NCBI GenBank assembly: GCA_949294455.1
Contig: CASFHD010000004.1
Span: forward strand, 1-61,769
Origin: an uncultured Christensenella sp.
GTDB lineage: Bacteria; Bacillota; Clostridia; Christensenellales; UBA1242
Direction: 5' to 3'
DNA: 61,769 bases
Every line of letters starts with the position of its first letter. Positions within the stretch are counted from its first letter, which is position 1. Made by a program: the position numbers and the translations under genes. Under the pieces are notes generated by a model. It was not told the DNA's origin. It saw only the letters and a program-made list of their open reading frames with translations, and searched no databases. This document shows, piece after piece, positions 2,698 through 61,746 of the stretch.

Positions 2698-2721
2698 GTT
2701 GATTTATTTAGTGGAGGTCTT

Positions 2722-42433: not shown

Positions 42434-42462
42434 TTGACTTTAAATATTATATTTTGTATAAT
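42434..42462 (+). promoter_or_regulatory. sigma-A promoter of the giant gene
   Basis: TTGACT-17 nt-TATAAT. Confidence 0.7.
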
Positions 42463-42532
42463 AAATTAATTATATAAATTATTTTATTGGGTAAAATAAA
42501 GTAATTTTATACGAATGAAGATGAGGGGTAAT

Positions 42533-45500
42533 ATGAAAAAATTAGGGATTGCATTTTTGATGCTTTTCACCATAATTTCTGGTGTCATTTTTTCAGCGTG
42601 TAAATCTGATTATGATGGAATGTATTTAGACATTTCTTATAAAACATTTTATTACCAAGATAACACAATGAATTACGACTTTGATGAGTATGAAGACTTA
42701 GATGAAGATGTCTTTAATTTTTCGTTGTATGAAGAAGTTGATGGACAGACAATAGATTATGTTGGCGTTGAATTTAAAGTCGAAACAAAGGGTAGTAAAA
42801 AAACTTCCAGCGTTGAACTTTGGACTAGAAGTAATACTAATTTTGAAGTCGTTTCAACAAGTTATTCAAATGGTGCGACTATAATAATAGTAAAATTTAA
42901 CAATGCGGGTATAAGTGTGGTTGATTTTACTGCAAAAGAAAGTGATAGTTGCAAAAGACAAGTAACATTTAATGTCGCTTATGAACTTGAAAGTTTAACT
43001 TTAAAAAATTTGGATAGTGCACCTGCTATGTTTATAGGCTCTAAAATTGACCTTAGTGAAATGAATTTGTTCAATTTCTTAGGAAAAGATGGGCAAACTG
43101 CTTTTAGCACAGATTTGTATTTTGAATTAAATTCAACTAATATGCGAGAAAAAAATTATAACAAGAATTACCTTACTTCAGTTAGTTCTGATGTGAACAG
43201 ATTGTTGTTGCCCGGAGATGTTAATGCTGACTACATTACATTCACTAATGATGGCGAACTCTCTGTTTCTAGTGCATATTTTGAATATAGCAAACAACAA
43301 ACTGCAAATAATACCCCTGACAACATTGTTTACTGGATTTGTTTTACTGTGCGACCTATGGTTTTGAATGATATTACAAAAGAATATGAACCTTCAAGAG
43401 AAATTTCGTGTGATGTTAATGTTTTAATTGTGGATAGTCTTGATAGTGCGGTTTTATCTTATAGCAATGTTTCTATGTCTTCCACTGATGGAAATATTGC
43501 TGATGAATACATATTGGAAAATGATAGTATTATAGATATTTTTACAGGCAAACAAGAAGATGTTTTTAGAACAATCAATACTTCTGATTCAAGCAAAGTT
43601 ATTGACTACACTAAAGCGGGAATAAGAGTTACTCCTTTTAATGATGATTACAATTTTATTAAACCATTAAGTAATATTAGTTCTGGTTCTGTATCATTGT
43701 TGGAAATATTTAATTACATTGACATTAGTTATTCTTATGCTGAAAATTACATAAAAGTTGAAAATGGTTTAGCGTCTGGTAGTTTTAAAGATTATACAAT
43801 TACATTTGGAGATGCTGGATTTACTGATGAATTGCAACAAATCACATTTAAAATTAAATATACTAATTTAATCTTTGACAAAAATGTATCAAATGAACAA
43901 GTAGTTAAAGATATCTCTTTGAATGTAAAATTAAATAAATTGTTAGATGGAAACTCTGCAATAAATGCTTATCAAGTTGATGAATTAGGTAATGCTTCTG
44001 TTGAAAGTATTGAAAGTTTTAAGTTGTACGATGAATATTCTAACAATTCTAGTCTAAAGATAAAATTCGAAAAGACTCCTACAGATGCGAATTTGTATGA
44101 TATTTATGGAAATTTATTATCTAACTTCCAATTGCTTTTAACTGAAAGTAGTTTTAATGCGATTAATGTTTTAGATAGTTTGGGAAGACTAAAAAATTAT
44201 TATTTAATTAATCTAAATATTGGTGGCAGGGTTGAAAGTTATTATGCTTTTAATGTGAATTTTGGAGAAACTGTTAGTTTTACATTAAAAGATAATTACA
44301 CAGGCAGTGATGAAATATTTAATTTGATAATGAAATATTCAAAATATCCTTTAAATTTCTGTAACGAAAATACGCCTATAACTGAAAGCGACATAATCAC
44401 TGAGACTTTTAGTTTGCGAGTAGTTAAGACTCCAACTAGTTTAAAGATTGTTAACCCTTTAGTTAGCGAAGAAATAGGTCTATCAAATGTCGATTTACCT
44501 ATTGGCAACGCTTTAAGGTTAAAATTATTGCTTGAAGGTGGGCAAGAATTTGAACTTAATGGAATAACAATTTCAAGTAAAAATGGAAGTTTGTTGTTTG
44601 GAACTACAAATAACATAAATAACTACACTGACCATTTAACTATTGATAGTTATGAAGTGGGTGCTTCATATTCGTTCTATGTATATGCAAATTCAGAACT
44701 AAATGATGAACAAATTATTGTGAATTATCCTAGTGGAAAATCTGTTTCTGTGATGTGTAATGCGGTTTTGACTGAATCTAGGGTCGATGTAGAAAACGCA
44801 GAATTCATTTATACAAAACAAGATATAGGTTATGAAACAACTTCTAATATTACCCTTGCTGACAATGCGTTAGGGCTTGCTTTATTAAAGGGTGGAATTA
44901 TTACGTTTAATCTGCCTGATGATTTAAATATAAATACTATTTCAACTAATGTTTTAGGTGCTGGGGATATTAATACTCAAATACAAAATTATTTGCCAGA
45001 TGCGATTAGTTTGGAAATGTTAAGTGGAAATTTAAACGAATTTAGAGTTTATGGTGTTAGAGCTGGCGCTACTGCTAAAATCAAAGTTGGTATATCTTTT
45101 TATATCGTTGAAAATGGTGTTGCAAAATTAGATGAAGTTTATAAATATATAGAAATTGCAGTTTATGAAAGAGTTTCAAATATATCAATTAGTAGAACTT
45201 CAGATAATTCATTTGTTTACTATCAAGATTCTTTAAGTCCTTATACCGAAAATTTAAGCAATGTTGATTATTTAGTCGATTACAATATTTCTTCAGCTAC
45301 AAGATTTGTAAACTTTTCGGGCGGACAAGTTGAAGTATTTAATATGTCATTTGCTGTAAATTATAAATCAAATGATAAATCTAATGTCAATTTTAAAGTT
45401 TATTATCTTGGAAATATTTATAATTCAAATGAGATTTTTGGTGTCCTTAATCCTTATGCTAGCAGAGATATAAGTTTGAATGTAATTACAAAGCCAGATG

Positions 45501-48500
45501 AAAATTTATCTAGAATTAGATTTGTTTTGACAACTACCGAGTTTGGTAAAAAGTTAGATGAGAGATTTATTGATACTGAAGTTTTAGAAGGTGTGAGAGT
45601 TGAAAATATTTTACTGAATGGTGTAGATTATAAAATTGTATCTGAAAATGGTGTAAATAAAATCAGATATAGCGAATACATTAATCTAAACGAATCTAAA
45701 TCTTTTGAAGCATTAATCAGTAATATTGATTATGCAACTTATCCAATTTTAGGTTATACTATTCAAGAATATGATGGTTCAGATTATATTAAGTTTGGTT
45801 ACACTTCAGAACAACTTGAAAAATACATTGCTGTTGATGGCTCGAATTATACAATAAATACTGTTGATAATGAAACTGGTGAGATTTTAGGTGGCGGTAT
45901 ATTTGTACTTACTATTGGAAGTCTTGATAGTTTTGATGGAAGTGTTTATAAAAACGCTGTACAAATTTATATTTATATTTCCGATGGAGTAAATCTTCCA
46001 TATTTTGTAGATAGTTTAGATGATTTGAAAAATATTTCAGTCGCTTCTGATAAAACATTCGCTTTAATTAAAGATATTGATGCAAGCGAACTTGACTCTC
46101 AAATTTGTGAAGAATTTTCTGGGAATTTGTTGGGCTATGTAAATGATGTTGGAACTAGCACAATAACTCAATATAAAATACACAACTTAAAATTGTCTGA
46201 AAGTTTTATAAGTGCAACTTCTACCGCAAATGGTAGCAGATTGTCGATGGGAATTTTTGGCAGAAATTTAGGTAAAATTTCGTCTATCACATTTGAAATT
46301 TCATCATTTAATGTTGATATTGAAAATCCTACAGAAGTGGTTTCATTGGGCTTGATTTGCGGTGTAAACGAAGCAGATGGAATTATTGAAAATTCTTCAG
46401 TAAAACTTCTTTGTGATGCCTTAATTAATTTACAAGCAGATATTAATACGAGTGATGCTAATATAAGTTTATTCGTGGGCGAAAATTATGGATTGATTTC
46501 TTCTGATTATGGAAAAATTATTGATTCTAATAATTATCAATTTGTTGTAAATTACTATAATCAAGCGGGTGAAACAAGAGGAATCAACATTTCAACAGGC
46601 GCTTTGGCGGGAGTTAATGCAGGCAGTATTTTAGGAGCGTATGATTATACTTCTTCTATTAAAGGGTCAGTGTATTCTTTAATTAATTTACAAGCAAACA
46701 TTAAAGTATCTTCTTATTCTGGCAGTATCTCAAATGTCGGAAATAATGTTGACCTCGCTAATTTTTATACGGCAGGTGCTGTCGGAATTAACTCTGGAAA
46801 AATCTCAAATATTTGTGCAAATGTTGTTGCAAATTCGTATGACTTTGTAGGCGGATTTATCGGTGTAAACGAAGGAGTAGAATCTGAAGCGTTTAATCTG
46901 TATCTTTTAGGTGCACAATTAACTTCTTTAAACAGTTCAGACAGTTTCGTTGGTGGAATTGCAGGAAAAATTTCATCAGTGCAAAACTTTGAAAACAACA
47001 GGGTGCAATTATTAAAAATAAATGGTCAAAATTCATTTATTCAAGGAGCACTAAATGTTGGTGGTATTGCTGGATTATTGGAAAACGGAAACATAAATTT
47101 CTGCTATGTTGAAAGATTTTATTCTGACACTTATAAAAATACTGATGACTCTATTAATTTAGTAGGAGAAAATTATAAATATTCTATTAGAAATTTATCA
47201 GGCTTTGTTGCAAATTTAGCTGGTATTGCAAATGGTTCTAACAATATAACTAATTCATTTATAAATACTAGTTTCTATACTGACAATGCATCAAATATAA
47301 AAACTATTCCAGATGGCTCAAATTACTCAATTTCAAAAGTTTACTATTCTGGAAATTTACCAAATGTCGATTTAAATGGTGCTTATTATACATTTGAAAG
47401 TATAGAGATAAATAGTTTAACTAGTTCGTTTGACAGCAAAAATTATTCGGGGGTAATTGATAGTTTTGTTACTCAATCAAATTCGGATAATATTATTCAA
47501 ATACATTTGAATGCGAATAATGGTCTTCCTATTATCGCATACGAGTTTGATGGAAATATAACTTATACAAACACAGTTGTTCCAACTAGTGCTAGCGCTG
47601 TAACAAATGATGATAAATTGTTTAAAGAAAACTTGCAAGACAACAGTTTGGTGGAAGAAATAAAAAATTCTAACTTGTTGTATAATGAAAATCATTTTAC
47701 AGGAATTAAGTTGCAAGACAGTGAAGCAGTATTATTCTATTATGAAAGTGATGAAATTTATAACGAAAATGCAGGTTTTGTAAAAGTTCAAAACGAACTA
47801 AATAAATATTATTTAGTGGTAGATGACTCTTTGATTTTGTGGAAAACTGAACCTGATGGCGCTAGTCTATCTTATGAAGTAAATATTTTAAGCGGTGAAA
47901 ATGTAGCAGATTTAGGCATTGATGAATTAGGAAATTATTATATTGTTTTGAAAAGAACAGGAGATGTTGTTCTTGAAATATCATCAATATTTAATGAAGA
48001 TATAAAATCTACTTTTATAGTACATTCAAGTTGCGGATTTACAAATCTTGATTTGTCATTGAACAATGATAATGAACCTATCAGTACTAATAATGAAAGA
48101 GTTGTTTTATATGTCAATCAAACTAAAAATTTAAAACCATTTATTGAAAATGTTTATAATAATTTTAAATTTAATTCAATAGAGTTTAATAATTTGAAAT
48201 TAAAAATTTATGCAGGCAATAATGTTGAGATAACAGGTAACGAGTTTGATTATTATAATTTTGATGATATTATAGGATTTACGGGAGTTAATTTTTACGA
48301 AGACGGGCAATATAAAGATTTCTCAATTATAGTTGAATACTATTACCTTGAAGACGGTAATTATTATTACTTATGTTCAAAGGAAATTGATTTTAGAACA
48401 TATAAAACTGCAATTTCGATAGAACTTGATGTAAATAAATTTGAAACTGAACCTAGCGAAGTGGTAGATTTTGTCGTTAATTTTAACACTTATTATGCAG

Positions 48501-51500
48501 TTGATGAATCAAGTTATTTATACTTAGATAATCAACTAGAAAATGGAGAAATTTCGTATTCTAGTGATGCATTAATATTGTCTATAATGGGCTCAACTGA
48601 TAAAGATAATGAACTAATTTTTGAAATCTTACAAAAGACTAACAAAAGTTCAGTTTATGATGTATTTGAAGTTGATTATACTGTGAGTAAACTTGGTTTT
48701 ACATACTCTTATCAAATATCTTTATCACTTGTTGATGATTTTAAAATTAGATATTTAGTTGACCAAATAAGTTTCAAATTAATGTTTAGAGCACTGACAG
48801 ATGAAGATGTTAAAAATGATAATTTAACTATTGTTTATAGTCCTGAAAATCTTTCAACTGTTAGAATTGAACATTATTCTAGCGGAACTATTGTTACTAA
48901 TTCTAATGCAAACAACAAAGTTGAATACATTAGTGGTACAACACAATCAAATGTTATTGTGCCAGGAAATAGTGGATTATTAAAATTTTATATCGAACCT
49001 AGTTATTCACTTGTTAACGATTTGGTTTTAAGGGCAAGTTATGGTCAAATTAGCGGTCAAAGAATTACCTTCCAACAAATGATTTATGACGGAACTAAAT
49101 ATATTTCTCTTAGCCATTCATCAAATTACGGTTTTATGTCAAACGGTAGTTATAGGCTTGAAAAAATATCATCTTATGATTCAACAACTAATTCTTATTC
49201 ATATAATGGTGTTATTTATGTTAGAACAATCTTAAATGATGCTGAAGGTAATAATGAATTATATGATATTTACTTAGATATTTATAAATCTAATATATAT
49301 GGTAATGGAAGTGCAGATGAAACGCTAACTAAAACTTTAATTTCACAATATTTACCAGGTGTTTATATTAGCGTTAGTGAAAATTCTTTATATACCTCTA
49401 TAGACGGCAATAACTATTACATTTTGCAAAGAGGTGCAGGTGCTAATTCTAATAATGCTTCATATATAGATGTGGCAGTTGTAGGATATGAACTTATAGG
49501 TCTTCCAAATTATCAAATAATTGGTGATAATATTTATGATAAAGTTTATCTTGTACAATCACAAGAAGCAGTTTACGATGAAACAAGTGGTAGATATAAC
49601 ATTAGATATTCTGTATTTGTAAGAAGTGATTTATTTGAAAAGTTTTCTATTAAATTTTCAATGGAACTTGTAAAAGACGGAATTACATATACTCAAGAAA
49701 AATTAGTAAACTTCATTACAACAGATTATATATTAGATTCAATAAATGTAACGAATTTGCACTCTACAATAAATTCAAGTTCTACTCTATTTATGAATTT
49801 AAATTCATTGAATGGAGAAATTGACCTTAATGAATTTTTAATAGATAATCAGGGTGTTATAGATGACAATAAAGTTATAAACTTTTTAAAGAATTTTAGA
49901 TTGTCAAACGGAGATTTATCTAATTATTATGTGCCTCAAAGTCAGTTGCAGTCGGCTTTGACTGATCCTAATAATGCAAATAAAGAGTTTTTAATCTATT
50001 ATGACAGCATTTCAAAAACATTTAGAATTTATGGTAGAATGATATCTAATTTCTCTGTAACTGTAGAAGTCCCATACACTTTCAAATTTGCAGATGATTT
50101 TAAAAATTATGTTGAATTGTCGTTTGATGTCTCTGGATTATCTTCATACTATGTGGCTGAAACGAATTTTAATATAACAATCTCTACAAGCACAGATGAA
50201 AATCAACCACGCGCAATTTATAACGCAGAACAATTTATGAATATGAATGCTGGTGGCGATTATATCTTGATGGAAGATATAAATCTCTATGGTTACAGTC
50301 CTATTAGTTTTAACGATAGCAACGTTATTTTCAGTTTAGATGGAAATAATAAAGTTATCAATATTTACTCATTTGATGTGAGCGGTAAAACTAATATAGG
50401 TCTATTTGAAAGTTTAGGTCAAAATTCTATACTTAAAAATGTTACTGTGAATATCGCAAATCTTCAAACTGTTAATATGTCTGGGGTCAATTCATTTAAC
50501 TTTGGTCTGTTAGCAGGATCAAATGAAGGTATTATTTACAATTGTGAAGTAATATCGTTTGATCCTAATCAAAATTCGAAAGTTGATTCAGTTATAAATA
50601 TTTTATCACAAGATAGTGTTTCATCAAGTGCGTCACACAATTTGATAGGGTTGTTAGTAGGTGAAAATTTAGGTAATATTATAAATTCACGAGTTGGCTC
50701 TAGTAGTTTTAAAAAAGTAACAGTGAGTGTAAATTCTTTAGGTGCTAACAACACTGTTGAAAATATAATAAGTTGCGGTACTATTACTTTAAATGCAAGG
50801 GGAGTAGTTGCAGGACTTGTCGCTGTAAATAGCGGTATAATATCATCGTGTTATGTAGCGAATACAACGGTTAATAATTTATATGAATTAAATAATTCGT
50901 ACAATATGACGGCGGGATTGGTCGCTGAAAATTCTAATAATGGTAAAATAATTTATTCTTATGTTGAAGGTTTGCAGTCAAGCATTAGTCAAACTTCTTT
51001 AAGGGCAAGCACAAATAAAATATACTCATATATAGGTAGCGTTGGTGCGTTTGTCTATACAAATTCAGGAACAATTTCTGATTGCTATGCAAATATTTTT
51101 GTAGAAAGTAACACTCAATTTGTTTCAGGATTTGCGTATATTAACGAAAATTCAGGCAAAATATTGCAGTCTTATTCGGTGGGAAATATTTCATCAAATT
51201 CTACATCTAATCAGCCATTTATAGGTGCAAATTTAAAAAATGAATTAAATTCATTTGGTGAAATTACAGATTGTTATTATCTCAAATTAGACAGTGATAA
51301 ATTTAGCGTTATAATAGACGGAAGCAAACCAAACGCAGTTGAATTAAATAGCGTAAATATTCAGTCAAGTGATAGTTTTAATAATTTCTGTTTTATTGAT
51401 GGCATTGAAAATAGTGAACAGGGAGTTTGGACTTTAAAAAATTCAGTCCTTCCTAAACTTGTTAGTGCAAATCAAATTGCAGTTTCTGTAAAATATTTTT

Positions 51501-54500: not shown

Positions 54501-57500
54501 ATGTATTCAGCAATACTTTGATGTCTTTAAAAACTGTTGATACTGTAGAAGATAGTTTGAACATATTAGTCGGTGGATTAATAGGTAATGTTTTAGGAAA
54601 TACTACTATATCAGATTCAATATCTGCAGGTAGAATAAACCTTGAAACGAACTCTTATCAAAATGTTGGTAAAATCAGTGTTGGTGGAATCATTGGCGTA
54701 ATTGAAAATGGTAAAATTTTAGTAACACGAACTATTACTATTTCAGTAATCTCAACATCTCAAATATCAAAAACTTATAAACAAGTTGATGCAGTCGATG
54801 TGTTTGTTCTAAATCAAGATGCTGTAATAGGTGAAAATTTAACTTCTGATTATAATATTGAAGTTTATTATTCAAGTGATTATACTTTATGCGATTCAAA
54901 TATAGGTTCTAACTATTCTGTAGATGCGCTTTTAAGCAAACAATTTGTTGCATCGTTAGAAGGGTTTACAAACAATTATGTAGGCAATGAAATAGTAAGT
55001 ATTCCTTATATGTCAAGCATTAAAAACTACCTTGTTTTGTCTGATGTTATGAATGAAGAAGGATTATTTGATTTGGGTAGTGCTATGCGTCCTATATCTA
55101 TAAATAATCAAAATAGAACAAATGCAATAACAGATAGTGGCTTTAATTATTATTATTTAAAAGAAAATCTAGACGATAAATTTAATTGTACATTTGCGTT
55201 TGAAGGAATTATTTTAGGTAACAATAAAACTATAAATATTACAAACTTTAATCTATTTAATGGATATATGGCATTAATTCCAGAAATCAGTAATAATAGT
55301 GCAATCTCAAACATTACATTGACTCTAAATAATGACATATCTTTAACACAAAAAACAGGACTATTAGTTGGCGTAAATAATGGTAATATATACTCTTGTT
55401 CAGTTGATTTTGATGGTATTAGTTTAACAAGCGGAAGTGAAACAGCATTTGTAGTGCATACTAATAATGGAAACATTTCTAATAGTTATTCTAGTGCAGA
55501 ATTAAAATCTGGTGTTGGTGCAACCTCTGGTTTTGTTTACTTAAATAACAATGTAATACAAAATTCATATTTCAACGGATATATAGGTGCATTAAATAGT
55601 TCAGGATTTATATTTGATAATGGTGAAAATTCATATCTTGAAAATTGTTATAGTGCAGGTGTAGTTCAAGGCTTAAAACAATTCGGAAATATTGCAGAAG
55701 TTAACACAGTTTGGAAAAATGTTTATTTTGATAAATACGCTACGAATTCATTATCAGAAGAAAACAATACTATTAACATAAAAGGTGTATATTCAGTAAA
55801 TTTAATTACATTAAACAACATTGATTTGGGTGATGAATTTACTGCAAACATTGTTGAAAATACTTCTGATGGGAAATTTAACAACACTTATACTATTAAA
55901 AATTTCGGTTTGAATTTCGGTTATCCTACAATTATAACCACTCAATACATTTTAAAATTAGATGATGAAACAAATAGTTTAAAAATTGTTGAAAACACTT
56001 ACTTTGGAGGAATTGAATCAGTTGTTGTAAAAAATGAGACAATTGATGAAAATGAATCAACTATCATAACAGTTTTAATTAATCATTTGGGAACACTTGA
56101 TAGCGTTAGAATGTATGAAAATAGTGGCAATTTTGCAAATGCTTTCACATACTTAAATACTAAATATGAAATCAATTCAAATAGGTCTATTAAATACAAT
56201 ATAATTTATGATATTTCAGCGACTAGTGATGTGGGCGGATTAAGTGGAAATTGGTTATCACTTGGATTAGAAAATTTGAAAACAGATGCTGGAAATATAA
56301 ATTATAAAGATTATGCATTTAGTTCAAATAATTTCAATTTCACAAAAGATTTGTCAGGCTTTAAATATAGAAAAATCTCTAATGAAATTTCTGCAATTTA
56401 CAATTTATCAGGACAAAGTTTATTCAACAGCATTTCGAATTCAAAAATTAGCAATATTAACTTTGGTGGGACTTCTAACTTTAGTACAGATGCTGGGCTC
56501 ATTGCTACAAATATGATAAGTTCTAGTGAAATTTATAACATTAAAGTTTTAAACAACGCTAGAATTAATTCATCACAAGCAGTTGGTGGTAATTTGGGTG
56601 GACTTGTAGGCAATATGTCAAATGGCTTAATTTATGACATAACCTATTTATCAAATGTAACTATAAGTGCAACTAATGGTTATATAGGTGCTATTGTTGG
56701 TTATATGTCTGGTGGTAATATAGGCAAAGTTGAGGCAAATACTATCTTATCATCAATAAGAATCGAAGATTTGAAATTTGACAATAATCAAAACACTTTA
56801 CACGGCGGTATAGTTGGTTATTTAGAAGATGGCAACATATATTTAGCAGATGATATAAATAAAACTAAAATCAATATAACTGCTGGTAGCAATGTTGGTG
56901 GAATAGCGGGTATTGCAAAAGTTCAAGGCGTCAAAAATGAGTATAGAGATGATGGCAGTTGGTTTGGGTTTAAAATTGAAAATGAATCTATCATTACAAT
57001 CCAAGGTACAGACTCGTTAGGCGGACTTTATGCAAAGGTTGAAGAATTAACTTTCACAAGTAATGTATCAATTAATGCTACATTAAATGGAGTTAGCAAT
57101 GTTGGTGGTATTGTAGGCCGTATTGAAGATAATTCATCAATGACTACCTCTTCAAACATTACAGTTGAATTTACAGGAAGCATAGGATTAAATGGATTTG
57201 CTTCTACATTTAGGGCTAATTTTGGTGGCATTGTAGGTTTACTATCAAATTCAAATTTATCTGCTGGTGAAAGCGGTGCTTTTGTAAACAATGGTAGTGT
57301 TGGTAATCAATATGAATATACATTAGTAAATATCGGCGGTATTGTAGGTCAAGCTAACGGAAGTTCTTCAGTTACAAATGTAACAAATAAAGGTAATATT
57401 TATGGTTTATACAATGTTGGTGGTATTATAGGATTATCAACAGGTGAAGAAAGTGCAAACATCAATGTAGAAATCACCAATGCTATAAATGAAGGCAATG

Positions 57501-60500
57501 TTTATGGCAATTTAGGTTTTACAGACTCTGGAGAAGAAATTGTTTTTGCAACAAATATTGGTGGTATAGTAGGTAGGGCTTACAAATCAATTTTTGTTGA
57601 CACTCAAATGAAAGGTAGAGTTGAATTACTGACAGAATTTAATGGTATCAATACATTAAAATCGGTAAAAAATAATTTTGTTGTCAACAATGCAATATCT
57701 AAACAACTCAATTCAGAATTAGAATCAGGTATCGGTGGTTTTGCAGGTAGTTTGTCAGATGTTCAATTTAGTGAAAATAATTCGATTTTGGGTGAAATTG
57801 ATGCAAGAAATGGTGTAAATGTAGGTGCTATTGCAGGTTATGTTTACGATTTATCAACAAGCATACCTACTATAAATACTATAAATGTAAGTGGTTCGTA
57901 TTATATTGGTGGTTATTTTGGTAAAATTGGCGAAGGAATTAATTTAGAATTAATGACCTTTAGTGGTTCAATTAATATAATGACAACAAATTATTCGGCA
58001 AACTATGTCGGCGGTATAATTGGTTATAGCAAGGTAGATATTTCTGGCTTATATATTGATGACACAACTTCAGGACAAATCAACATATTTAACAAAAATG
58101 TTTCGTATGCTGGAGGTCTAATCGGTTGCTTAGAAGACGCTAATATGGTCAATTTAATTGTAACTGATGATGATGGTCATTATTTGACTACTATTAATAA
58201 TGGTTATGCTGTAAACAAGGTGATTTTTGCAGATTCAGACAACTTAAATTATGGCGGACTTGTTGGTGTATTAAGGCAAACAGATGAAAATATAAATAGT
58301 TTAACTATAGAAGGTGAACATTACTCACAATTTACTGTTGATACAATTGAAGTAACTGGTATTAAAACTACATCTTCTTCAATGAGTTCTAAACAAACTG
58401 ATAATAATTTCATTTTGTCAGCAACTGCTAACTATACATTAAATACAGAGTTCAAAATATCTAATTCTAGCAACTTTACAGAAGATGTTATTAATGGTGG
58501 AAATCCATTCTACAATGGTAAAAATTGGTCAAGTGATTATACTAAATTTAGAAGAATGCAAAGGATTATAGATGATGAAGCGAACGATATTTATTCGCTT
58601 GAAGAAGTATTTAATTTTGAATCAGTCTATGATTATGATGGAACAAATACCACATTAATTTTAGATAGATATAATGCCGACTATATTGGTCAAACTGGCG
58701 ATAGGCAAGATTTAATTAAATATTCAGGTAAAATTTATTCGACCGAAAATATTTCTGAAAAACCTAATACTAGAAATATTTGGTATTATATAAAGGATAG
58801 TTTTAAAAAGTTTGCTAATTCAACTCTTACTGATGTAGATAGAATTAATAATTATACTAATACAGGTAAAGCAAGTTTAATCAATGATTATCTAAATCAA
58901 AATTCATCAATGTCTGGCGTTTTGTCTGCATTAAATTCTAGACAAATTGCATACGACAGTAGCGGTAGAATTCTTGCAACTACTGATAACTATATTGTCC
59001 TAAATGATGCAGAAGGAAATAATTTAGTTTACTATTTCTATTCTACTAGTGAACCTACAGATTTCGGTGAAAATGAAGGAAATTACATTTTAAGAAATGG
59101 TGTATATTACATTTATTCTGGTGCATATATATCAGACGAAAATTCATCTGAATCTAACTTTGTTTCAAATGTTCCTACTGTAAATAGCAGCAATATGCAT
59201 GAACTTTATTATGATGAAAATAAAGTTGTTTATGTTTACGAATTTAGTGAAGACTTTAAAGATTTTGTTTCAGATGACCCAGATGATCAAATTCAAGTTA
59301 ATTCTTATTATACTTTAGACTTGTCAGATGAAAATCAATCAGCATTTGAAGTACAAACATATTGGCAGTATATGGGCGTTTCTAATGAATTCGACTCACT
59401 TGAAACTGCGTTAAATTCTGTTCCAATTTATAAGACTTTATACAATGGTTTATCAGAAAATGAAAAGTTGTATGTTGAAGGGAAAATATTTACATCTAAA
59501 GTATTCTATAGATATTCAGATTCTATAAATAACACAAGACCTTCAAGACAAGTAACTGAAAATATTTATAAAGATTACAATAGTTATCTTGATGGCGAAG
59601 AACCAATTTCTACTTCTACAACTGCACAATATTTGACAACAAGTGATTATTATAAATTGGGTAATTATTATTACATTTACAACAAAACTGATTTAGTTGA
59701 ACAGTATAATAGTTATGAAGAATTGTCAAATGGAAATTATAAAGTAACAACTTATAATTCAGCGACTGAAGGACTAAATAAATATAAATTGTGGTTTGCT
59801 TCTGTTGATAGGTATGGAAAGTTATATAATCAAGATAATGATAGTGCAATAAATATCACCAATCAAATTTTACTGCAATATTTATTTACAGATGAGAGTT
59901 CAAATTATAATTTACCAACAATAAAAATAAATCAATATGTAGGACACGTTCATAATGGTTACGTAGTTGGTGCTCAAAGAACGCCTGTTTTAAAAGATGG
60001 CTATTCAGGTATTTATAGTTATTCAAAGAAAAGCAATAATGGTTTTGTTCAAGTTACACCTGTTGACGACTATGAATATGAACCAATAATTACTTTTGTT
60101 GAAAAATTGGATTATTTAAAATATGGCGAGGGTGAATCACAAATATATACATTGTATTTTGAAACAAGTTCTACCTTTATAAAATATGTTAACAATTCTG
60201 ATATGCTAATTGAAAAGAATGATAGTAAAATAAACACTTATATTAGTGCAACAACTAATGGTACTGATTTGACAATATTCGATGGAAATGGAAATGAAAA
60301 TGTTATAACATTCTATAGGGGTACAGGCATAAATGGTGCTGACCAGTACTCTTTAAATAACTCTTCGGTTATAAACGATATAACAGATAATTTTGTTCAA
60401 CAATATTCAAATTATTATTGCATAAATGATGGTAAAACAATTCCTTTTGTAAGTTCAGACGAAACTGTTTTGACTTTTATTAAAATTTCAGGAAATCGTG

Positions 60501-60874
60501 TATTTATATTGTCAACTGATTTTGTTGCAAATAATATTATTGAAAACGGTGAAACTAATTCTTCTATTTCAGGAGATGTAAGAAAAATTATATACAACAT
60601 CGCAGATACTGATACTGCTTACACTAACAGATATCGTTATACTATAAATGGTCAAGATTTCTACACAAGATATTATTATGATTACAATTCTGGTAATACC
60701 AACATAGACATAGAAGAATTATTGCAAGAACAATTAAATGAAAATTTGAATTATACATTAATTTATGGTATGAATTCAGATAATCTCGAAAGTTTATCAT
60801 TAAACGAATTATTAGTAAGAAATGTTATCTTTGCAGAAGGACTAGTCTTCAATTTCGCAGGAAATATTTCTTAA
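42533..60874 (+). CDS. giant (~6,113 aa) surface lipoprotein with Ig-like segments and GLUG/beta-helix modules
   Basis: GAGGGG SD, signal MKKLGIAFLMLFTIISGVIFSAC (lipobox FSAC), dozens of (N/Y)VGG(I/L)(V/A/I)G motifs and an uninterrupted 18.3 kb frame. Confidence 0.85.
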   Translation: MKKLGIAFLMLFTIISGVIFSACKSDYDGMYLDISYKTFYYQDNTMNYDFDEYEDLDEDVFNFSLYEEVDGQTIDYVGVEFKVETKGSKKTSSVELWTRSNTNFEVVSTSYSNGATIIIVKFNNAGISVVDFTAKESDSCKRQVTFNVAYELESLTLKNLDSAPAMFIGSKIDLSEMNLFNFLGKDGQTAFSTDLYFELNSTNMREKNYNKNYLTSVSSDVNRLLLPGDVNADYITFTNDGELSVSSAYFEYSKQQTANNTPDNIVYWICFTVRPMVLNDITKEYEPSREISCDVNVLIVDSLDSAVLSYSNVSMSSTDGNIADEYILENDSIIDIFTGKQEDVFRTINTSDSSKVIDYTKAGIRVTPFNDDYNFIKPLSNISSGSVSLLEIFNYIDISYSYAENYIKVENGLASGSFKDYTITFGDAGFTDELQQITFKIKYTNLIFDKNVSNEQVVKDISLNVKLNKLLDGNSAINAYQVDELGNASVESIESFKLYDEYSNNSSLKIKFEKTPTDANLYDIYGNLLSNFQLLLTESSFNAINVLDSLGRLKNYYLINLNIGGRVESYYAFNVNFGETVSFTLKDNYTGSDEIFNLIMKYSKYPLNFCNENTPITESDIITETFSLRVVKTPTSLKIVNPLVSEEIGLSNVDLPIGNALRLKLLLEGGQEFELNGITISSKNGSLLFGTTNNINNYTDHLTIDSYEVGASYSFYVYANSELNDEQIIVNYPSGKSVSVMCNAVLTESRVDVENAEFIYTKQDIGYETTSNITLADNALGLALLKGGIITFNLPDDLNINTISTNVLGAGDINTQIQNYLPDAISLEMLSGNLNEFRVYGVRAGATAKIKVGISFYIVENGVAKLDEVYKYIEIAVYERVSNISISRTSDNSFVYYQDSLSPYTENLSNVDYLVDYNISSATRFVNFSGGQVEVFNMSFAVNYKSNDKSNVNFKVYYLGNIYNSNEIFGVLNPYASRDISLNVITKPDENLSRIRFVLTTTEFGKKLDERFIDTEVLEGVRVENILLNGVDYKIVSENGVNKIRYSEYINLNESKSFEALISNIDYATYPILGYTIQEYDGSDYIKFGYTSEQLEKYIAVDGSNYTINTVDNETGEILGGGIFVLTIGSLDSFDGSVYKNAVQIYIYISDGVNLPYFVDSLDDLKNISVASDKTFALIKDIDASELDSQICEEFSGNLLGYVNDVGTSTITQYKIHNLKLSESFISATSTANGSRLSMGIFGRNLGKISSITFEISSFNVDIENPTEVVSLGLICGVNEADGIIENSSVKLLCDALINLQADINTSDANISLFVGENYGLISSDYGKIIDSNNYQFVVNYYNQAGETRGINISTGALAGVNAGSILGAYDYTSSIKGSVYSLINLQANIKVSSYSGSISNVGNNVDLANFYTAGAVGINSGKISNICANVVANSYDFVGGFIGVNEGVESEAFNLYLLGAQLTSLNSSDSFVGGIAGKISSVQNFENNRVQLLKINGQNSFIQGALNVGGIAGLLENGNINFCYVERFYSDTYKNTDDSINLVGENYKYSIRNLSGFVANLAGIANGSNNITNSFINTSFYTDNASNIKTIPDGSNYSISKVYYSGNLPNVDLNGAYYTFESIEINSLTSSFDSKNYSGVIDSFVTQSNSDNIIQIHLNANNGLPIIAYEFDGNITYTNTVVPTSASAVTNDDKLFKENLQDNSLVEEIKNSNLLYNENHFTGIKLQDSEAVLFYYESDEIYNENAGFVKVQNELNKYYLVVDDSLILWKTEPDGASLSYEVNILSGENVADLGIDELGNYYIVLKRTGDVVLEISSIFNEDIKSTFIVHSSCGFTNLDLSLNNDNEPISTNNERVVLYVNQTKNLKPFIENVYNNFKFNSIEFNNLKLKIYAGNNVEITGNEFDYYNFDDIIGFTGVNFYEDGQYKDFSIIVEYYYLEDGNYYYLCSKEIDFRTYKTAISIELDVNKFETEPSEVVDFVVNFNTYYAVDESSYLYLDNQLENGEISYSSDALILSIMGSTDKDNELIFEILQKTNKSSVYDVFEVDYTVSKLGFTYSYQISLSLVDDFKIRYLVDQISFKLMFRALTDEDVKNDNLTIVYSPENLSTVRIEHYSSGTIVTNSNANNKVEYISGTTQSNVIVPGNSGLLKFYIEPSYSLVNDLVLRASYGQISGQRITFQQMIYDGTKYISLSHSSNYGFMSNGSYRLEKISSYDSTTNSYSYNGVIYVRTILNDAEGNNELYDIYLDIYKSNIYGNGSADETLTKTLISQYLPGVYISVSENSLYTSIDGNNYYILQRGAGANSNNASYIDVAVVGYELIGLPNYQIIGDNIYDKVYLVQSQEAVYDETSGRYNIRYSVFVRSDLFEKFSIKFSMELVKDGITYTQEKLVNFITTDYILDSINVTNLHSTINSSSTLFMNLNSLNGEIDLNEFLIDNQGVIDDNKVINFLKNFRLSNGDLSNYYVPQSQLQSALTDPNNANKEFLIYYDSISKTFRIYGRMISNFSVTVEVPYTFKFADDFKNYVELSFDVSGLSSYYVAETNFNITISTSTDENQPRAIYNAEQFMNMNAGGDYILMEDINLYGYSPISFNDSNVIFSLDGNNKVINIYSFDVSGKTNIGLFESLGQNSILKNVTVNIANLQTVNMSGVNSFNFGLLAGSNEGIIYNCEVISFDPNQNSKVDSVINILSQDSVSSSASHNLIGLLVGENLGNIINSRVGSSSFKKVTVSVNSLGANNTVENIISCGTITLNARGVVAGLVAVNSGIISSCYVANTTVNNLYELNNSYNMTAGLVAENSNNGKIIYSYVEGLQSSISQTSLRASTNKIYSYIGSVGAFVYTNSGTISDCYANIFVESNTQFVSGFAYINENSGKILQSYSVGNISSNSTSNQPFIGANLKNELNSFGEITDCYYLKLDSDKFSVIIDGSKPNAVELNSVNIQSSDSFNNFCFIDGIENSEQGVWTLKNSVLPKLVSANQIAVSVKYFYGGVSYFADDYAYGSSINPYIVRDVEEFNTYIAFDNETSATSKFFNGYIRLVDDIDFTGLDMETRTEMDMQGVIDGNGMTLSGLYIGPTQTSQSSIGLFSTITNGVVKNLNIEFDTIEEARGSSYVGGLAGIIDDSIILNVTLSGENKMLTGDNFVGGLAGLVRGESVLFNISSNLSVKATVRNLENYIRSGENNFAYEYLNEEDFNYQNFGFSYSGYNTYNEYLRNLSYAGGIAGVLDLDESPLNENAKRLQVYGNVQIVGVNAGGIAGYTSIDTSIKKGYVELSNGSFVLGVYSSGGIAGINYGDIYQSKVQYSDNDNFRERIREYEQNPSESNIEISNQRIVENAYYQDQVRIGSSSYYSLLLGSVYVGGVAGINFAGEIYNTLSSVVVYTDSEYLSGFVGLNIGGKFNYVYSNSLVKLTESNSFMGGMFAYIMSASNKKINIENGSYYSNSMKALEVYNKFYKNVDGNDDLSVDLYSVVSGIAYDNKLISLFNSNQSKSYKNLFVGYIDENVVFVNDSVNSSTDLDTNTFVTVYYKAEQNVITNISSVYNFNTYDSNLLNTKTDRSSEQKALFRRMFGNWPIEYWDINNQSKEIYFPPLLDKSINNYYEISSSEDMGLIGLYPDANFVVTNDITISAYNYVADVVFTGSIVGVEIEDASGVKRLPKITIDLSLSNFNGAKSITGAGFFKQTENAIIRNLDIEYIIKEVNSNQELRQYFGGISSMDIGSSFENLYVSFEFASGNSEITNVSFEQFGGLIANSTDSFITSCVVNIGSNENIQEIDFIKAGNNKNASFGGIVGHADSSIKLDENNENYDYVILSTQANLYIDLHIDAINSYVGGVVGDINNKVYLSSATASGKLNVYSVDNTNSNQISIGGIIGYAKNVVFDNIYISNLNISLNINSNKSSQFDKSIVVGGIVGEALNMQGENSYSKNSTITNKVSSNNSYIYGGLIGKISAQSSLKNSVSNIEIIDEYSKYLTAGGITGSNSTEVEYLNVFSNTLMSLKTVDTVEDSLNILVGGLIGNVLGNTTISDSISAGRINLETNSYQNVGKISVGGIIGVIENGKILVTRTITISVISTSQISKTYKQVDAVDVFVLNQDAVIGENLTSDYNIEVYYSSDYTLCDSNIGSNYSVDALLSKQFVASLEGFTNNYVGNEIVSIPYMSSIKNYLVLSDVMNEEGLFDLGSAMRPISINNQNRTNAITDSGFNYYYLKENLDDKFNCTFAFEGIILGNNKTINITNFNLFNGYMALIPEISNNSAISNITLTLNNDISLTQKTGLLVGVNNGNIYSCSVDFDGISLTSGSETAFVVHTNNGNISNSYSSAELKSGVGATSGFVYLNNNVIQNSYFNGYIGALNSSGFIFDNGENSYLENCYSAGVVQGLKQFGNIAEVNTVWKNVYFDKYATNSLSEENNTINIKGVYSVNLITLNNIDLGDEFTANIVENTSDGKFNNTYTIKNFGLNFGYPTIITTQYILKLDDETNSLKIVENTYFGGIESVVVKNETIDENESTIITVLINHLGTLDSVRMYENSGNFANAFTYLNTKYEINSNRSIKYNIIYDISATSDVGGLSGNWLSLGLENLKTDAGNINYKDYAFSSNNFNFTKDLSGFKYRKISNEISAIYNLSGQSLFNSISNSKISNINFGGTSNFSTDAGLIATNMISSSEIYNIKVLNNARINSSQAVGGNLGGLVGNMSNGLIYDITYLSNVTISATNGYIGAIVGYMSGGNIGKVEANTILSSIRIEDLKFDNNQNTLHGGIVGYLEDGNIYLADDINKTKINITAGSNVGGIAGIAKVQGVKNEYRDDGSWFGFKIENESIITIQGTDSLGGLYAKVEELTFTSNVSINATLNGVSNVGGIVGRIEDNSSMTTSSNITVEFTGSIGLNGFASTFRANFGGIVGLLSNSNLSAGESGAFVNNGSVGNQYEYTLVNIGGIVGQANGSSSVTNVTNKGNIYGLYNVGGIIGLSTGEESANINVEITNAINEGNVYGNLGFTDSGEEIVFATNIGGIVGRAYKSIFVDTQMKGRVELLTEFNGINTLKSVKNNFVVNNAISKQLNSELESGIGGFAGSLSDVQFSENNSILGEIDARNGVNVGAIAGYVYDLSTSIPTINTINVSGSYYIGGYFGKIGEGINLELMTFSGSINIMTTNYSANYVGGIIGYSKVDISGLYIDDTTSGQINIFNKNVSYAGGLIGCLEDANMVNLIVTDDDGHYLTTINNGYAVNKVIFADSDNLNYGGLVGVLRQTDENINSLTIEGEHYSQFTVDTIEVTGIKTTSSSMSSKQTDNNFILSATANYTLNTEFKISNSSNFTEDVINGGNPFYNGKNWSSDYTKFRRMQRIIDDEANDIYSLEEVFNFESVYDYDGTNTTLILDRYNADYIGQTGDRQDLIKYSGKIYSTENISEKPNTRNIWYYIKDSFKKFANSTLTDVDRINNYTNTGKASLINDYLNQNSSMSGVLSALNSRQIAYDSSGRILATTDNYIVLNDAEGNNLVYYFYSTSEPTDFGENEGNYILRNGVYYIYSGAYISDENSSESNFVSNVPTVNSSNMHELYYDENKVVYVYEFSEDFKDFVSDDPDDQIQVNSYYTLDLSDENQSAFEVQTYWQYMGVSNEFDSLETALNSVPIYKTLYNGLSENEKLYVEGKIFTSKVFYRYSDSINNTRPSRQVTENIYKDYNSYLDGEEPISTSTTAQYLTTSDYYKLGNYYYIYNKTDLVEQYNSYEELSNGNYKVTTYNSATEGLNKYKLWFASVDRYGKLYNQDNDSAINITNQILLQYLFTDESSNYNLPTIKINQYVGHVHNGYVVGAQRTPVLKDGYSGIYSYSKKSNNGFVQVTPVDDYEYEPIITFVEKLDYLKYGEGESQIYTLYFETSSTFIKYVNNSDMLIEKNDSKINTYISATTNGTDLTIFDGNGNENVITFYRGTGINGADQYSLNNSSVINDITDNFVQQYSNYYCINDGKTIPFVSSDETVLTFIKISGNRVFILSTDFVANNIIENGETNSSISGDVRKIIYNIADTDTAYTNRYRYTINGQDFYTRYYYDYNSGNTNIDIEELLQEQLNENLNYTLIYGMNSDNLESLSLNELLVRNVIFAEGLVFNFAGNIS

Positions 60875-60928: not shown

Positions 60929-60963
60929 AAAAAGATACTGACTTTTTGCAGTATCTTTTTTTT
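60929..60963 (+). terminator. intrinsic terminator of the giant gene
   Basis: AAAAAGATACTG...CAGTATCTTTTT followed by a T-run. Confidence 0.8.
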
Positions 60964-61181
60964 AATCTCATTACTATCTTTATTGACAATCTTGCATTGA
61001 GTAAATAGTGTCTTTTAATAAATAATGTTTTAGTGTCTATTTAAATTTTAGTATTAATTAAAATTATTGAAATAATTAAATCAAAAACAATTATATTAAA
61101 ATGGTAAAATTAACTAATAATATATTAATACTAAATAAATGTAAAGTTGTTTATATTCCTATTTATATATATTTATAATAC

Positions 61182-61280
61182 AATTATCTATAAAGTAATG
61201 TTAACCCAAACATCAATCAAAAAAATTAGAGAATTATCTATAAAGCAATGTTAACTTAAATATTAATCAAAAAAATAGAG
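61182..61280. repeat. imperfect tandem duplication (~50 bp x2)
   Basis: AATTATCTATAAAG(T/C)AATGTTAAC..AAA.AT.AATCAAAAAAAT(T)AGAG at 61182-61231 and 61232-61280. Confidence 0.8.
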
Positions 61281-61717: not shown

Positions 61718-61746
61718 TTGACACAAATTTATTCTTGTGGTAATAT
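61718..61746 (+). promoter_or_regulatory. strong sigma-A promoter at window end (possibly for a stable-RNA operon)
   Basis: A-tract UP-like region, TTGACA-17 nt-TAATAT with extended TG, then GC-richer sequence running off the window. Confidence 0.6.

Follow-up and report, generated by a model that had tools for sequence, protein, structure and literature searches.

Giant fibrillar surface proteins include Ebh of Staphylococcus aureus, SiiE and the LapA/BapA-type adhesins; Lactobacillus kunkeei, with genomes of 1.5 Mb, reportedly carries genes for giant surface proteins as well (PMC4494060). The Ebh/SiiE/LapA-type giants consist of near-identical tandem Ig-like or helical repeats and rely for their anchoring on LPXTG, on a membrane segment at the C-terminus or on a type I secretion plug. 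A different group of surface proteins, the M26 IgA1 metalloproteases of Streptococcus pneumoniae and Gemella haemolysans, is attached to the cell wall and carries one GLUG beta-helix module each; GLUG domains are also found in BACOVA_03286 of Bacteroides ovatus. Finally, the general right-handed parallel beta-helix fold occurs in PL6 alginate lyases (8bwk/7dmk/5gkd), GH28 polygalacturonases and the HK620 and CBA120 tailspikes.

The giant protein described here shares features with all three groups. Like Ebh, SiiE, the LapA/BapA adhesins and the L. kunkeei giants it is very long, secreted, repetitive, beta-rich, acidic and cell-bound, takes up a big share of a small genome and has a presumed role in attachment. 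In contrast to the Ebh/SiiE/LapA-type giants, it consists of highly diverged beta-helix modules and has a predicted N-terminal lipid anchor. With the IgA1 proteases and BACOVA_03286 it has GLUG in common, which scores above the Pfam cut-off, but it lacks the Peptidase_M26 domain and the HExxH motif of the ZmpA-type M26 enzymes, matches no PDB chain at the sequence level, not even by family profile, and strings at least six modules together in one chain of 6,113 aa that is predicted to be lipid-anchored. The carbohydrate enzymes and tailspikes share the general fold, and the PL6 lyases also the tandem of two helices, yet here the core appears to have no conserved set of catalytic-looking residues.

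The reading frame and its integrity

The window, i.e. the whole stretch of 61,769 nt that was analyzed (contig CASFHD010000004.1 of assembly GCA_949294455.1, an uncultured Christensenella sp.), contains 42 ORFs of at least 100 aa. The biggest runs uninterrupted on the plus strand from the first ATG at 42515 to 60874 (6,119 codons). The ATG at 42533 is the better start: GAGGGG lies 4 nt upstream and the database versions of the protein (6,113 or 6,114 aa) begin at the same ATG. Counted from there, the gene measures 18,342 nt, or 29.7% of the window, and is free of internal stops, just as a sequence-only reading of this DNA had described it (one intact ORF on about 30% of the window). The same reading had credited the gene with its own promoter and terminator. 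A promoter-like and a terminator-like site are present (see table); of terminator-like sites the region has 6, versus 3.9 expected. Promoter-like matches in the region are as frequent as in shuffled sequence (137 found, 141 expected), so it is by position that this one recommends itself. Between the gene and the end of the contig (895 nt) no further ORF of at least 40 aa was found. Near-identical DNA repeats within the ORF, whose absence had also been noted from the letters, were not found: the TRF search returned a single weak row (21-nt x 2.1), and direct-repeat families are 31-56 nt long and only 61-87% identical.

Features of the giant gene and its product (positions in the window, 5' to 3')
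Feature	Position	Strand	Remarks
Promoter-like site, TTGACT-17 nt-TATAAT	42434..42462	+	11/12 consensus match; 71 nt upstream of start codon
Shine-Dalgarno-like GAGGGG	42523..42528	+	4 nt upstream of ATG 42533; read from sequence
Coding sequence	42533..60874	+	6,113 codons + stop; no internal stops; product 6,113 aa
Lipoprotein signal peptide, aa 1-23 (MKKLGIAFLMLFTIISGVIFSAC)	42533..42601	+	lipobox F-S-A-C; predicted lipidated Cys at aa 23; pattern match
Membrane-proximal region, aa 24-800	42602..44932	+	lineage-specific; no detectable relatives outside genus
First GLUG-type beta-helix-like module, ~aa 1160-1700	46010..47632	+	inferred from motifs and weak profiles
Family-defining core, aa 2527-3308 (782 aa)	50111..52456	+	two consecutive right-handed parallel beta-helices; AF2 model from alignment
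GLUG-type beta-helix-like module, ~aa 3660-4085	53510..54787	+	motifs and profiles
Beta-helix-like module, ~aa 4188-4460	55094..55912	+	sub-profile bh1, iE 7.2e-9; covered by ~40 family representatives
Long GLUG-rich beta-helix-like stretch, ~aa 4530-5280	56120..58372	+	motifs and profiles
Distal C-terminal region, aa 5380-6113	58670..60871	+	orphan; fastest-evolving; without anchor motif
Terminator-like hairpin	60929..60960	+	12-bp stem, 8-nt loop, then T run; 55 nt past stop

The frame could be suspected of being an assembly artefact, or a decaying pseudogene that is open by chance. The genome is a metagenome bin of 44 contigs, a genome of the same genus carries the gene split across two contigs, and none of the contigs listed for four sequencing runs spans the whole gene. 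Against this stand full-length intact versions from two other assemblies, 98.2% and 94.7% identical, which differ by 107 and 325 residues, contain no stop and change in length by at most one residue. Strain differences are densest at aa 5700-6000, with 45. A chimeric assembly, named in advance as one of the observations that would overturn the sequence-only reading, is countered by three intact versions from different assemblies. In the same-genus genome codons 1-4387 are likewise free of stops, and dN/dS over this part is 0.127, with values of 0.08-0.21 in every block of 400 codons (0.08 at the N end); for codons 5575-6113 it is 0.18. The comparison covers these two stretches, codons 4388-5574 being without a partner. 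Short contigs that come from three further studies together tile the gene in all 30 bins, and hundreds of relatives fall into the same length class with a similarly placed core. The giant gene is real and intact, neither a chance frame nor a chimera; as far as these data go, the artefact or pseudogene reading is already refuted, and we regard its remaining chance as negligible. One metatranscriptome yielded 18 short contigs of 90-99% identity in 19 of the 30 bins, which, as the sample may contain DNA, are weak RNA evidence and no proof of transcription; bins that lack cover carry no information.

Anchor, modules and core fold

The first 23 residues fit a Gram-positive lipoprotein pattern (basic residues, hydrophobic stretch, lipobox Cys), and lipobox-like N-termini are present in 131 of 150 family representatives. 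Profile searches of the genome identified the two processing enzymes, Lgt (PF01790, 220 bits) and LspA (PF01252, 117.5 bits), both over their cut-offs; judging from the N-terminal sequence, Cys23 would be the lipid-modified residue. At 98.8% completeness the genome yielded no sortase (PF04203). The protein lacks an LPXTG-like motif as well as a hydrophobic segment at its C-terminus, which sets it apart from sortase-anchored wall proteins. Hydrophobic 19-mers (Kyte-Doolittle >1.6) occur in the signal peptide and once at ~aa 2757 inside a beta-helix, and nowhere else; of 129 full-length representatives, only 2 have a strongly hydrophobic 19-mer within their last 400 aa. These results bear out what had been proposed from the sequence, namely a giant protein of the cell surface whose N-terminus is tethered by lipid, with an FSAC lipobox and with neither LPXTG nor a C-terminal TM anchor. 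The mature protein has a mass of ~673 kDa and a pI of ~4.3 (706 D+E versus 372 K+R).

Two transpeptidase-type PBPs and two Mur ligases are encoded in the genome; the organism makes peptidoglycan, so the protein has to pass a wall. The sequence-only reading had called this crossing unexplained. In walled Gram-positives, membrane-anchored giants, Ebh of Staphylococcus aureus among them, cross the wall too, and by this analogy the passage would seem to be no special puzzle. A lipoprotein may also remain beneath the wall, and exposure beyond it is something we infer.

Most of the chain appears to consist of GLUG-type beta-helix modules. When the protein was scanned as ten 600-aa pieces at E<=10, Pfam GLUG (PF07581, gathering score 20.5 bits) was listed in five pieces and exceeded the cut-off in two, the other three reaching 20.3, 12.8 and 11.9 bits. 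Apart from chance rows no other Pfam family appeared in these pieces, SLH, NRPS and PKS included, in line with the earlier impression that such motifs are missing. NCBIfam gave two chance-level rows on the 600-aa pieces, Pfam and NCBIfam gave no matches on 2,000-aa pieces at E<=0.01, and PDB sequence searches with the protein or the core profile returned nothing credible (a single row, E 0.28). Outside the core, module boundaries were placed by motif counts and by sub-profile matches that are weak (i-Evalues 1e-9 to 1). The module at ~aa 1160-1700 holds a cluster of GG[ILV]xG motifs (1420-1516), weak sub-profile matches (1159-1592) and the 11.9-bit GLUG match of piece 3, which is below the cut-off. 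Further on, nine motif hits at 3754-4057, spaced ~32-44 aa, a sub-profile match (iE 2.8e-7) and GLUG at 21.0 bits, above the cut-off, in piece 7 (aa 3601-4200) support the module at ~aa 3660-4085, and thirteen motif hits at 4574-5247, together with sub-profile matches and GLUG at 36.3 bits (E 5.5e-9) in piece 9 (aa 4801-5400), the stretch at ~aa 4530-5280. When the protein was compared with itself, off-diagonal matches at E<1e-5 numbered only two, so divergence of the modules is too great for a count by sequence. The spacer at aa 1690-2545 aligned with 6 of 11 relatives over parts of aa 1944-2424, at 24-27% identity.

The core was modelled with AF2 at pLDDT 80.1 and pTM 0.84 as an all-beta structure, and this confident model covers 782 of the 6,113 residues. 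In the model the core has the right-handed parallel beta-helix fold of the solved GLUG domains (3n6z, 6xjb). For its first helix VIA ranks highest three non-catalytic beta-helix domains from IgA1 proteases (7uvk, 6xjb and 6xja; Z 24.7-25.5; 6xjb 24.9), the best with Z 25.5 at 3.5 A over 277 residues, and 3n6z (BACOVA_03286) follows with Z 22.6 and 21% identity. Taken together, these four structures match with Z 22.6-25.5, rmsd 3.0-4.7 A, 253-284 residues and 13-21% identity; generic pectate-lyase-type helices reach Z 14-17. Among 150 proteins, 102 core columns are conserved at 85% or more, of which 31 are G, 17 N, 11 F and seven charged (D2582, D2603, K2635, R2720, R2987, R3039, D3228). Read from the alignment, this conservation has the look of a structural ladder pattern without a catalytic signature. 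AlphaFold plus Foldseek had been suggested as a check, and the outcome is divided: the core resolved into two beta-helices, while the model of the C-terminal tip, built from a two-sequence alignment, failed (pLDDT 28.7). The protein is built mainly of known GLUG-type beta-helix modules.

A family with a conserved core and variable ends

A search with the core profile, which scores 870 bits on the giant protein itself, returned 1,598 cluster representatives at E<=1e-30. Most of the best 150 (E<=1.8e-169) are 4.7-7.3 kaa long. With its 782-aa double beta-helix core, a length above 3 kaa and a lipobox start, the giant protein has all the features by which members are recognized (a minimum of 3 kaa applies). 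The earlier suggestion of an undescribed system does not hold in this form, the modules being of a known type and the protein one of more than 1,500 relatives. It is a member of a family of giant GLUG lipoproteins that occur in gut Clostridia with tiny genomes (probably UBA1242, Christensenellales). The relatives are annotated in databases as ‘hypothetical protein’. In the papers found on giant surface proteins, GLUG and reduced-genome Christensenellales/UBA1242 we saw no description of the family, and term searches in the text of PMC11573180 and of bioRxiv 10.1101/2023.11.21.568195 turned up neither GLUG nor lipoproteins.

A survey of paralogues and orthologues, likewise proposed beforehand, traced the core to 224 of the 301 same-family genomes, and at genus level to 47 of 58, usually with 2-4 matches per genome. 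No match was obtained in 145 genomes from 41 other families of the order. In 77 of the 301 family genomes no core was found, and one genus lacked it in all 8 of its genomes that were searched, so the core is either dispensable or frequently lost in assembly. Per genome there is a long paralogue (~6-7 kaa) and a short one (~3.4-3.6 kaa). A divergent ttcA-like neighbour of the gene also adjoins a 6,650-aa counterpart in another genus, which speaks for orthology of the two.

Conservation along the chain is highly uneven. Across 129 full-length members (8,256 pairs) the core could be aligned in 100% of pairs, the first 600 aa in 22% and the last 600 aa in 7%. In these members the median start of the core is aa 2349, versus 2527 in the giant protein; the core is covered by BLAST in 143 of 148 family representatives, from which aa 1-500 receive no cover at all. 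The first 800 and the last 730 residues were found only within the own genus. Against 148 family members phmmer gave no match for aa 24-800 (E<=10) and none for the C-terminal region. The C-terminal 734-830 aa matched only their own cluster among 4,202 giant candidates, and for the C-terminal region there was no match among 7,999 candidates of 403-1,285 aa and no usable hit in the ESM Atlas.

A probable attachment fibre and its alternatives

We consider it rather likely that the giant protein serves in attachment, as a fibre tethered to the membrane and ending in a variable tip, a function deduced from the features above. The essential attachment or epibiotic role suggested by the sequence-only reading is a deduction of the same kind. 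The Sec pathway would export the acidic lipoprotein of 6,113 residues, Lgt would add diacylglycerol to Cys23 and LspA would remove the signal peptide, leaving the mature 673-kDa chain tethered by its N-terminus to the outer face of the cytoplasmic membrane. There the chain would fold into a long, mostly beta-structured fibre of at least six GLUG-type right-handed parallel beta-helix modules (~aa 1160-1700 and 2550-5290) with beta-rich spacers between them, reaching through and past the cell wall. The double beta-helix core (aa 2527-3308) is retained by all family members, the proximal 800 and above all the distal 730 residues varying by lineage. The conserved shaft would supply length and stiffness, and the variable C-terminal tip would set the binding specificity, whether the target is a microbe that serves as partner, mucus of the host or some particle in the gut of the animal.

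The same features could be accommodated by a coat or spacer without any particular target, in which the protein and other giants form a dense brush that repels phages, host antibodies or enzymes, or stands in for an S-layer. Giant ORFs are indeed plentiful in this genome, seven of them exceeding 2,800 aa and summing to 30,588 codons (8.1% of the genome), and GLUG motifs recur in further giant ORFs on contigs C7 and C13; the strongly acidic composition, the structural nature of the conserved residues and the origin of the nearest solved domain from an antibody-directed protein would all suit a brush. A mere spacer, though, needs no conserved core plus fast-changing ends, and the low dN/dS of the lineage-specific ends (0.08 and 0.18) reveals purifying selection, which points to specific folded functions; we therefore think a non-specific coat unlikely. 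A cell-bound multi-enzyme is less probable still. Its beta-helix modules would act as polysaccharide lyases or hydrolases, or as partners of a protease, on host mucus, dietary fibre or the wall of a partner, as tailspikes and PL6 lyases do. The fold alone leaves room for this, as beta-helices are also found in polysaccharide lyases, hydrolases and phage tailspikes: Foldseek, applied to the whole model, ranks two-domain PL6 alginate lyases first (E 7.6e-6 to 9.5e-4), and VIA lists GH28 polygalacturonases, alginate epimerases/lyases and phage depolymerases at Z 14-17. An organism that must import most metabolites (see also PMC12306168) would have use for such activities. The PL6 two-domain alignments have TM 0.12-0.16 and rmsd >20 A, however, and the best match, a non-catalytic domain, is ahead by ~8 Z units. 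Neither Pfam (E<=10) nor NCBIfam (E<=0.1) listed a family of lyases, hydrolases or peptidases, the chain contains no HExxH and just 19 His in 6,113 residues, and no more than seven charged residues are conserved in the core. The relation to PL6 and pectate lyases is one of fold likeness, with conserved columns that are mostly G/N/F.

The layout of a conserved shaft and a highly variable C-terminal end, here 734 aa without a known match, also recalls polymorphic toxins, and the filament might hand a variable effector to a neighbouring cell upon contact. This we hold to be very improbable. Usual polymorphic toxin tips are far shorter than the ~730 aa that vary here, and the N-terminal 800 aa are variable too. 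No immunity gene is seen downstream, given the lack of ORFs of at least 40 aa before the contig end, spare C-terminal cassettes are not present elsewhere in the genome, Pfam and NCBIfam list no toxin family, and the C-terminal dN/dS of 0.18 argues in the same direction.

If the attachment-fibre reading is adopted, the organism offers a setting for it. The genome of 1.13 Mb is reduced, as the sequence-only reading had supposed, and at 98.8% completeness neither ATP synthase alpha/beta nor PGI was found in it. This fits the UBA1242 family of Christensenellales, whose reduced genomes presumably go with dependence on a partner (PMC12306168). Such gut Clostridia are described, in PMC12306168 and PMC13155120, as common in farm animals and chickens, never cultured and suspected of living off other cells. 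A more specific version of the attachment fibre, tentative and in our eyes rather doubtful, makes it the organ with which a Clostridium that obligately depends on a partner docks: fibre and shorter paralogue would fasten the cell to another microbe or to host tissue, and the fast-changing C-terminal 730 residues would decide on the partner in each lineage. The cell concerned would make no ATP via ATP synthase and lack part of glycolysis. A docking organ of this kind would be, on the Gram-positive side, the equivalent of the apparatus by which epibiotic Patescibacteria attach.

The gene is not unique, being one member of a family with more than 1,500 cluster representatives. The GLUG beta-helix, hitherto an accessory domain of IgA1 proteases, can apparently be the main block of fibres of more than 6,000 residues that are held by lipid instead of sortase. 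If the conserved pair of giant lipoproteins is an attachment device, it would give a concrete handle on the lifestyle of reduced-genome gut Clostridia: a surface antigen for cell sorting or imaging, a marker whose variable tip tracks strains, and a candidate determinant of partner or host specificity.

An intact giant gene under selection

The giant gene is real and under selection. Its translation is stop-free, and the sequence-only reading was right to describe one intact ORF covering about 30% of the window (18,342 nt, 29.7%); it is the longest among 42 ORFs of at least 100 aa, with a G+C content of 29.0% versus about 27% for the genome. The ATG at 42533 is likely the true start codon, giving 6,113 residues, since GAGGGG lies 4 nt upstream and database entries for the protein start at this codon too. 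The 90% cluster of the protein has three members, all intact and full length: the window's own (6,113 aa, 61,769-nt contig), one on a 20,170-nt contig of a different assembly (107 differences, 98.2% identity) and one of 6,114 aa on a 51,291-nt contig (325 differences, 94.7% identity). In the same-genus genome G001, codons 1-4387 are found on one contig and 5575-6113 on a second, stop-free, and dN/dS against this genome is 0.127 overall (Nei-Gojobori), 0.08-0.21 in each 400-codon block and 0.18 in the C-terminal piece. The three intact full-length versions and the low dN/dS rule out an assembly artefact. Chicken-gut and faecal metagenomes from three further studies yield short contigs that cover all 30 gene bins at 90-99% identity. 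Eighteen short contigs from one gut metatranscriptome, falling in 19 of the 30 bins, are a weak hint of transcription.

A promoter and a terminator of the gene's own had also been proposed, and a candidate site for each flanks it (see table). Promoter-like sites were no more numerous in our scan than in shuffled sequences, so it is position that speaks for the candidate promoter. The claim that near-identical DNA repeats are absent was correct: tandem repetition in the ORF is limited to one weak 21-nt row, beside a few direct repeats (31-56 nt, 61-87% identity), and protein self-comparison gave two off-diagonal matches at E<1e-5. Past the gene, the promoter-like site at the contig end may belong to the leader of an operon missing from the assembly.

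Features of the window, the giant protein and a related genome; cover of the giant protein is the number of 148 family representatives aligning by BLAST
Feature	Position	Remark
Lipoprotein gene	29697-31109 (+)	470 aa, lipobox LTAC
803-aa protein gene	32952-35363 (+)	N-terminal membrane segments, long coiled-coil-like middle
Divergent PP-loop ATPase (TtcA-like) gene	41554-42246 (-)	adjoins giant gene
Promoter-like site	42434-42462	11/12 match; upstream of giant gene
Open frame	42515-60874 (+)	
Giant gene	42533-60874 (+)	
Core, best-conserved part	aa 2527-3308; 50111-52456	from relatives' alignment
Terminator-like hairpin	60929-60960	downstream of giant gene
50-nt direct repeat	61175-61274	two copies, 84-88% identity, 300 nt past giant gene
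Repeated A/T-rich 35-nt unit	61663-61746	ends in TTGACA-17-TAATAT promoter-like site, extended -10 TG; contig end
Cover	aa 1-500	0
Cover	aa 2000-2500	about 50
Cover	aa 2600-3200	143
Cover	aa 3300-3800	35-60
Cover	aa 4100-4500	about 40
Cover	aa 4800-5350	about 40
Cover	aa 5500-6113	0
Family paralogues in genome G068	C1:55286-74683 and C1:91228-101550	

A family with a beta-helix core

A profile of the core, the 782-aa double beta-helix that defines the family, was searched against 1.84 billion cluster representatives and matched 22,565 proteins at E≤1e-3, 8,725 at 1e-10 and 1,598 at 1e-30. The best 150 relatives all score E≤1.8e-169; most are 4.7-7.3 kaa long and have the core near aa 2,000-3,500. 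Across 129 full-length members the median core start is aa 2349, with a median of 3,360 residues behind it. “Hypothetical protein” was the sole source name encountered, and precomputed Pfam entries were GLUG and, once, Big_2. The survey of related genomes that the sequence-only reading had called for (matches counted at E≤1e-20) covered the window's family, probably UBA1242: 224 of 301 genomes hold the core, as do 181 of the 230 of high quality, and 47 of 58 genera are represented. Two to four matches per genome are usual, and the open frames reach 8,262 aa. Among genomes sampled across the order Christensenellales, the core occurred in the window's genome (G000) and in all five other genomes of that family, and in none of 145 genomes from 41 other families.

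Two forms tend to occur per genome, one long (6-7 kaa) and one short (3.1-3.6 kaa). In G000 the long one is the giant gene, the short one a lipoprotein of 3,599 aa encoded on contig C14, and an ORF of 1,054 aa on C6 gives a further, partial match. Long (6.2-7.2 kaa) and short (3.1-3.5 kaa) paralogues share a contig in five genomes of two genera (G068, G042, G109, G139, G164), about 20-37 kb apart by core-match positions. The short form of G068 directly precedes homologues of two large genes on G000 contig C8, taken by size to be rpoB/rpoC. These giant genes are set among housekeeping genes, with no obvious mobile island. In G014, of another genus, a homologue of the divergently transcribed TtcA-like neighbour (60.5% identity) also stands beside the 6,650-aa counterpart, and this kept neighbour supports orthology of the long forms.

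Pfam listed nothing for 2,000-aa pieces of the giant protein and GLUG (PF07581) in 5 of 10 pieces of 600 aa, above cut-off in two (aa 4801-5400, 36.3 bits; aa 3601-4200, 21.0 bits). Motifs of the GG[ILV]xG type occur 37 times, clustered at aa 1420-1516, 2766-2800, 3122-3425, 3754-4057 and 4574-5247 (6,119-residue numbering). Structure prediction and Foldseek comparison, also proposed earlier, succeeded for the core only. AlphaFold2, run on an alignment with eight homologues of other genera (31-39% identity), gave an all-beta model of short strands (pLDDT 80.1, pTM 0.84). With the whole core model, Foldseek found two-domain PL6 alginate lyases at E 7.6e-6, yet with TM 0.12-0.16, and reached probability 1.0 for 3n6z and the IgA1 protease 6xjb. 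VIA-align superposed model residues 29-460 on the IgA1 protease beta-helix domain (7uvk, Z 25.5, 3.5 A, 277 residues; 6xjb, Z 24.9; 6xja, Z 24.7), followed by 3n6z (Z 22.6, 21% identity) and other pectate-lyase-type helices, tailspikes and polygalacturonases (Z 14-17); this list bears on the first helix and scarcely covers the second (model residues ~478-782). Sub-profiles of both helices matched weakly at about aa 1160-1600, 3330-3470, 3660-4085, 4188-4460 and 4530-5280. Added to the modelled core, these matches suggest at least six beta-helix modules that together cover about 3,300 residues. A beta-helix coil takes about 35 residues and rises 4.8 A; on that assumption the helices, leaving aside the other ~2,800 residues, would span about 45 nm. 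The idea of an undescribed system did not hold up for the core, whose beta-helix/GLUG build is known, though no paper describing the family was found in the literature outside supplements.

Anchoring and the variable ends

Residues 1-23 (MKKLGIAFLMLFTIISGVIFSAC) match a Gram-positive lipoprotein pattern. Of 150 family representatives, 131 have a lipobox-like N-terminus, and several of the remaining 19 appear truncated or mis-started. The lipobox noted earlier is thus confirmed at the level of pattern. Equally sound was the statement that LPXTG and a C-terminal membrane anchor are missing: the giant protein has no LPXTG-like motif, its final 60 residues are polar, and no hydrophobic 19-mer was found besides the signal peptide and one within the beta-helix near aa 2757. 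Among 129 representatives, a simple hydrophobicity test detects a strongly hydrophobic C-terminal segment of the membrane-anchor type in only 2. G000 (98.8% complete) encodes Lgt and LspA, and no sortase was found in it. It also encodes two transpeptidase-type PBPs and two Mur ligases, and the cell therefore has a wall. The mature chain (~673 kDa, pI ~4.3) contains 11.7% Asn, 11.2% Ser and 7.0% Tyr. By a crude pattern, 15 of 1,036 G000 ORFs of at least 80 aa have lipoprotein-like N-termini, the two core-family members being the largest by far; the window holds a second lipoprotein.

The variable tip holds for the giant protein and across the family. Among the 129 full-length members, all 8,256 pairs align in the core, 46% and 42% in the 600 aa flanking it, 22% in the first 600 aa and only 7% in the last 600. 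Within the species cluster, differences are densest at aa 5700-6000 (45 per 300 residues). For the C-terminal 734 aa, no search returned a relative, G000 holds no spare copies elsewhere, and the structure model was unusable.

Possible role in a reduced organism

Genomes of the window's family measure 0.5-1.7 Mb, that of G000 1.13 Mb at 27% G+C. The ATP synthase alpha/beta family (PF00006) matched 14 of 14 control genomes and had no match in G000 (98.8% complete), which suggests that the cell lacks rotary ATPases altogether; PGI (PF00342) likewise had no match there, and FBA is present. These results fit the published description of UBA1242 (0.67-1.6 Mb, no ATP synthase, incomplete glycolysis), for which a partner-dependent life was proposed; that paper names “hypothetical membrane-bound proteins” with a possible part in cell interactions, and no giant proteins (PMC12306168). 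UBA1242 increases with age in chicken caeca, in a report whose consulted sections do not mention surface proteins (PMC13155120). Seven G000 open frames of 2,844-6,591 codons (contigs C12, C4, C7, C14, C10, C13, C1) total 30,588 codons, about 8.1% of the genome. Only those on C4 and C14 carry the core; the others (e.g. 6,591 codons on C12, 4,614 on C7) have a signal or membrane-anchor start and belong to other families, with GLUG motifs also on C7 and C13. The 803-aa protein of the window bears five AT-hook-like repeats (K/RGRGRPRK) near its C-terminus, an unusual feature mix for a bacterial membrane protein.

In 150 aligned family proteins, 102 core columns are conserved at ≥85%, including 31 Gly, 17 Asn, 11 Phe, 9 Ile and 7 Ser, and only seven are charged (D2582, D2603, K2635, R2720, R2987, R3039, D3228). 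The giant protein has 19 His in total and no HExxH, and neither Pfam nor NCBIfam lists an enzyme family for it. The few charged conserved columns and the lack of HExxH and of an enzyme family favour a structural or binding role, and an array of cell-bound enzymes is improbable. A coat covering the surface non-specifically is unlikely, if less so, and a filament delivering toxins is very improbable.

The best-supported picture, which we hold to be probable, is an attachment fibre. The proposal of a giant, lipid-tethered surface protein in a walled cell is supported by the gene, the lipoprotein signal and the Lgt, LspA and wall enzymes; that it forms a filament across the wall and serves in attachment is the probable part. 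The protein would be exported by Sec and processed as a lipoprotein by Lgt and LspA; its conserved beta-helix shaft would extend outward from the membrane across the wall, with specificity supplied by the variable distal end.
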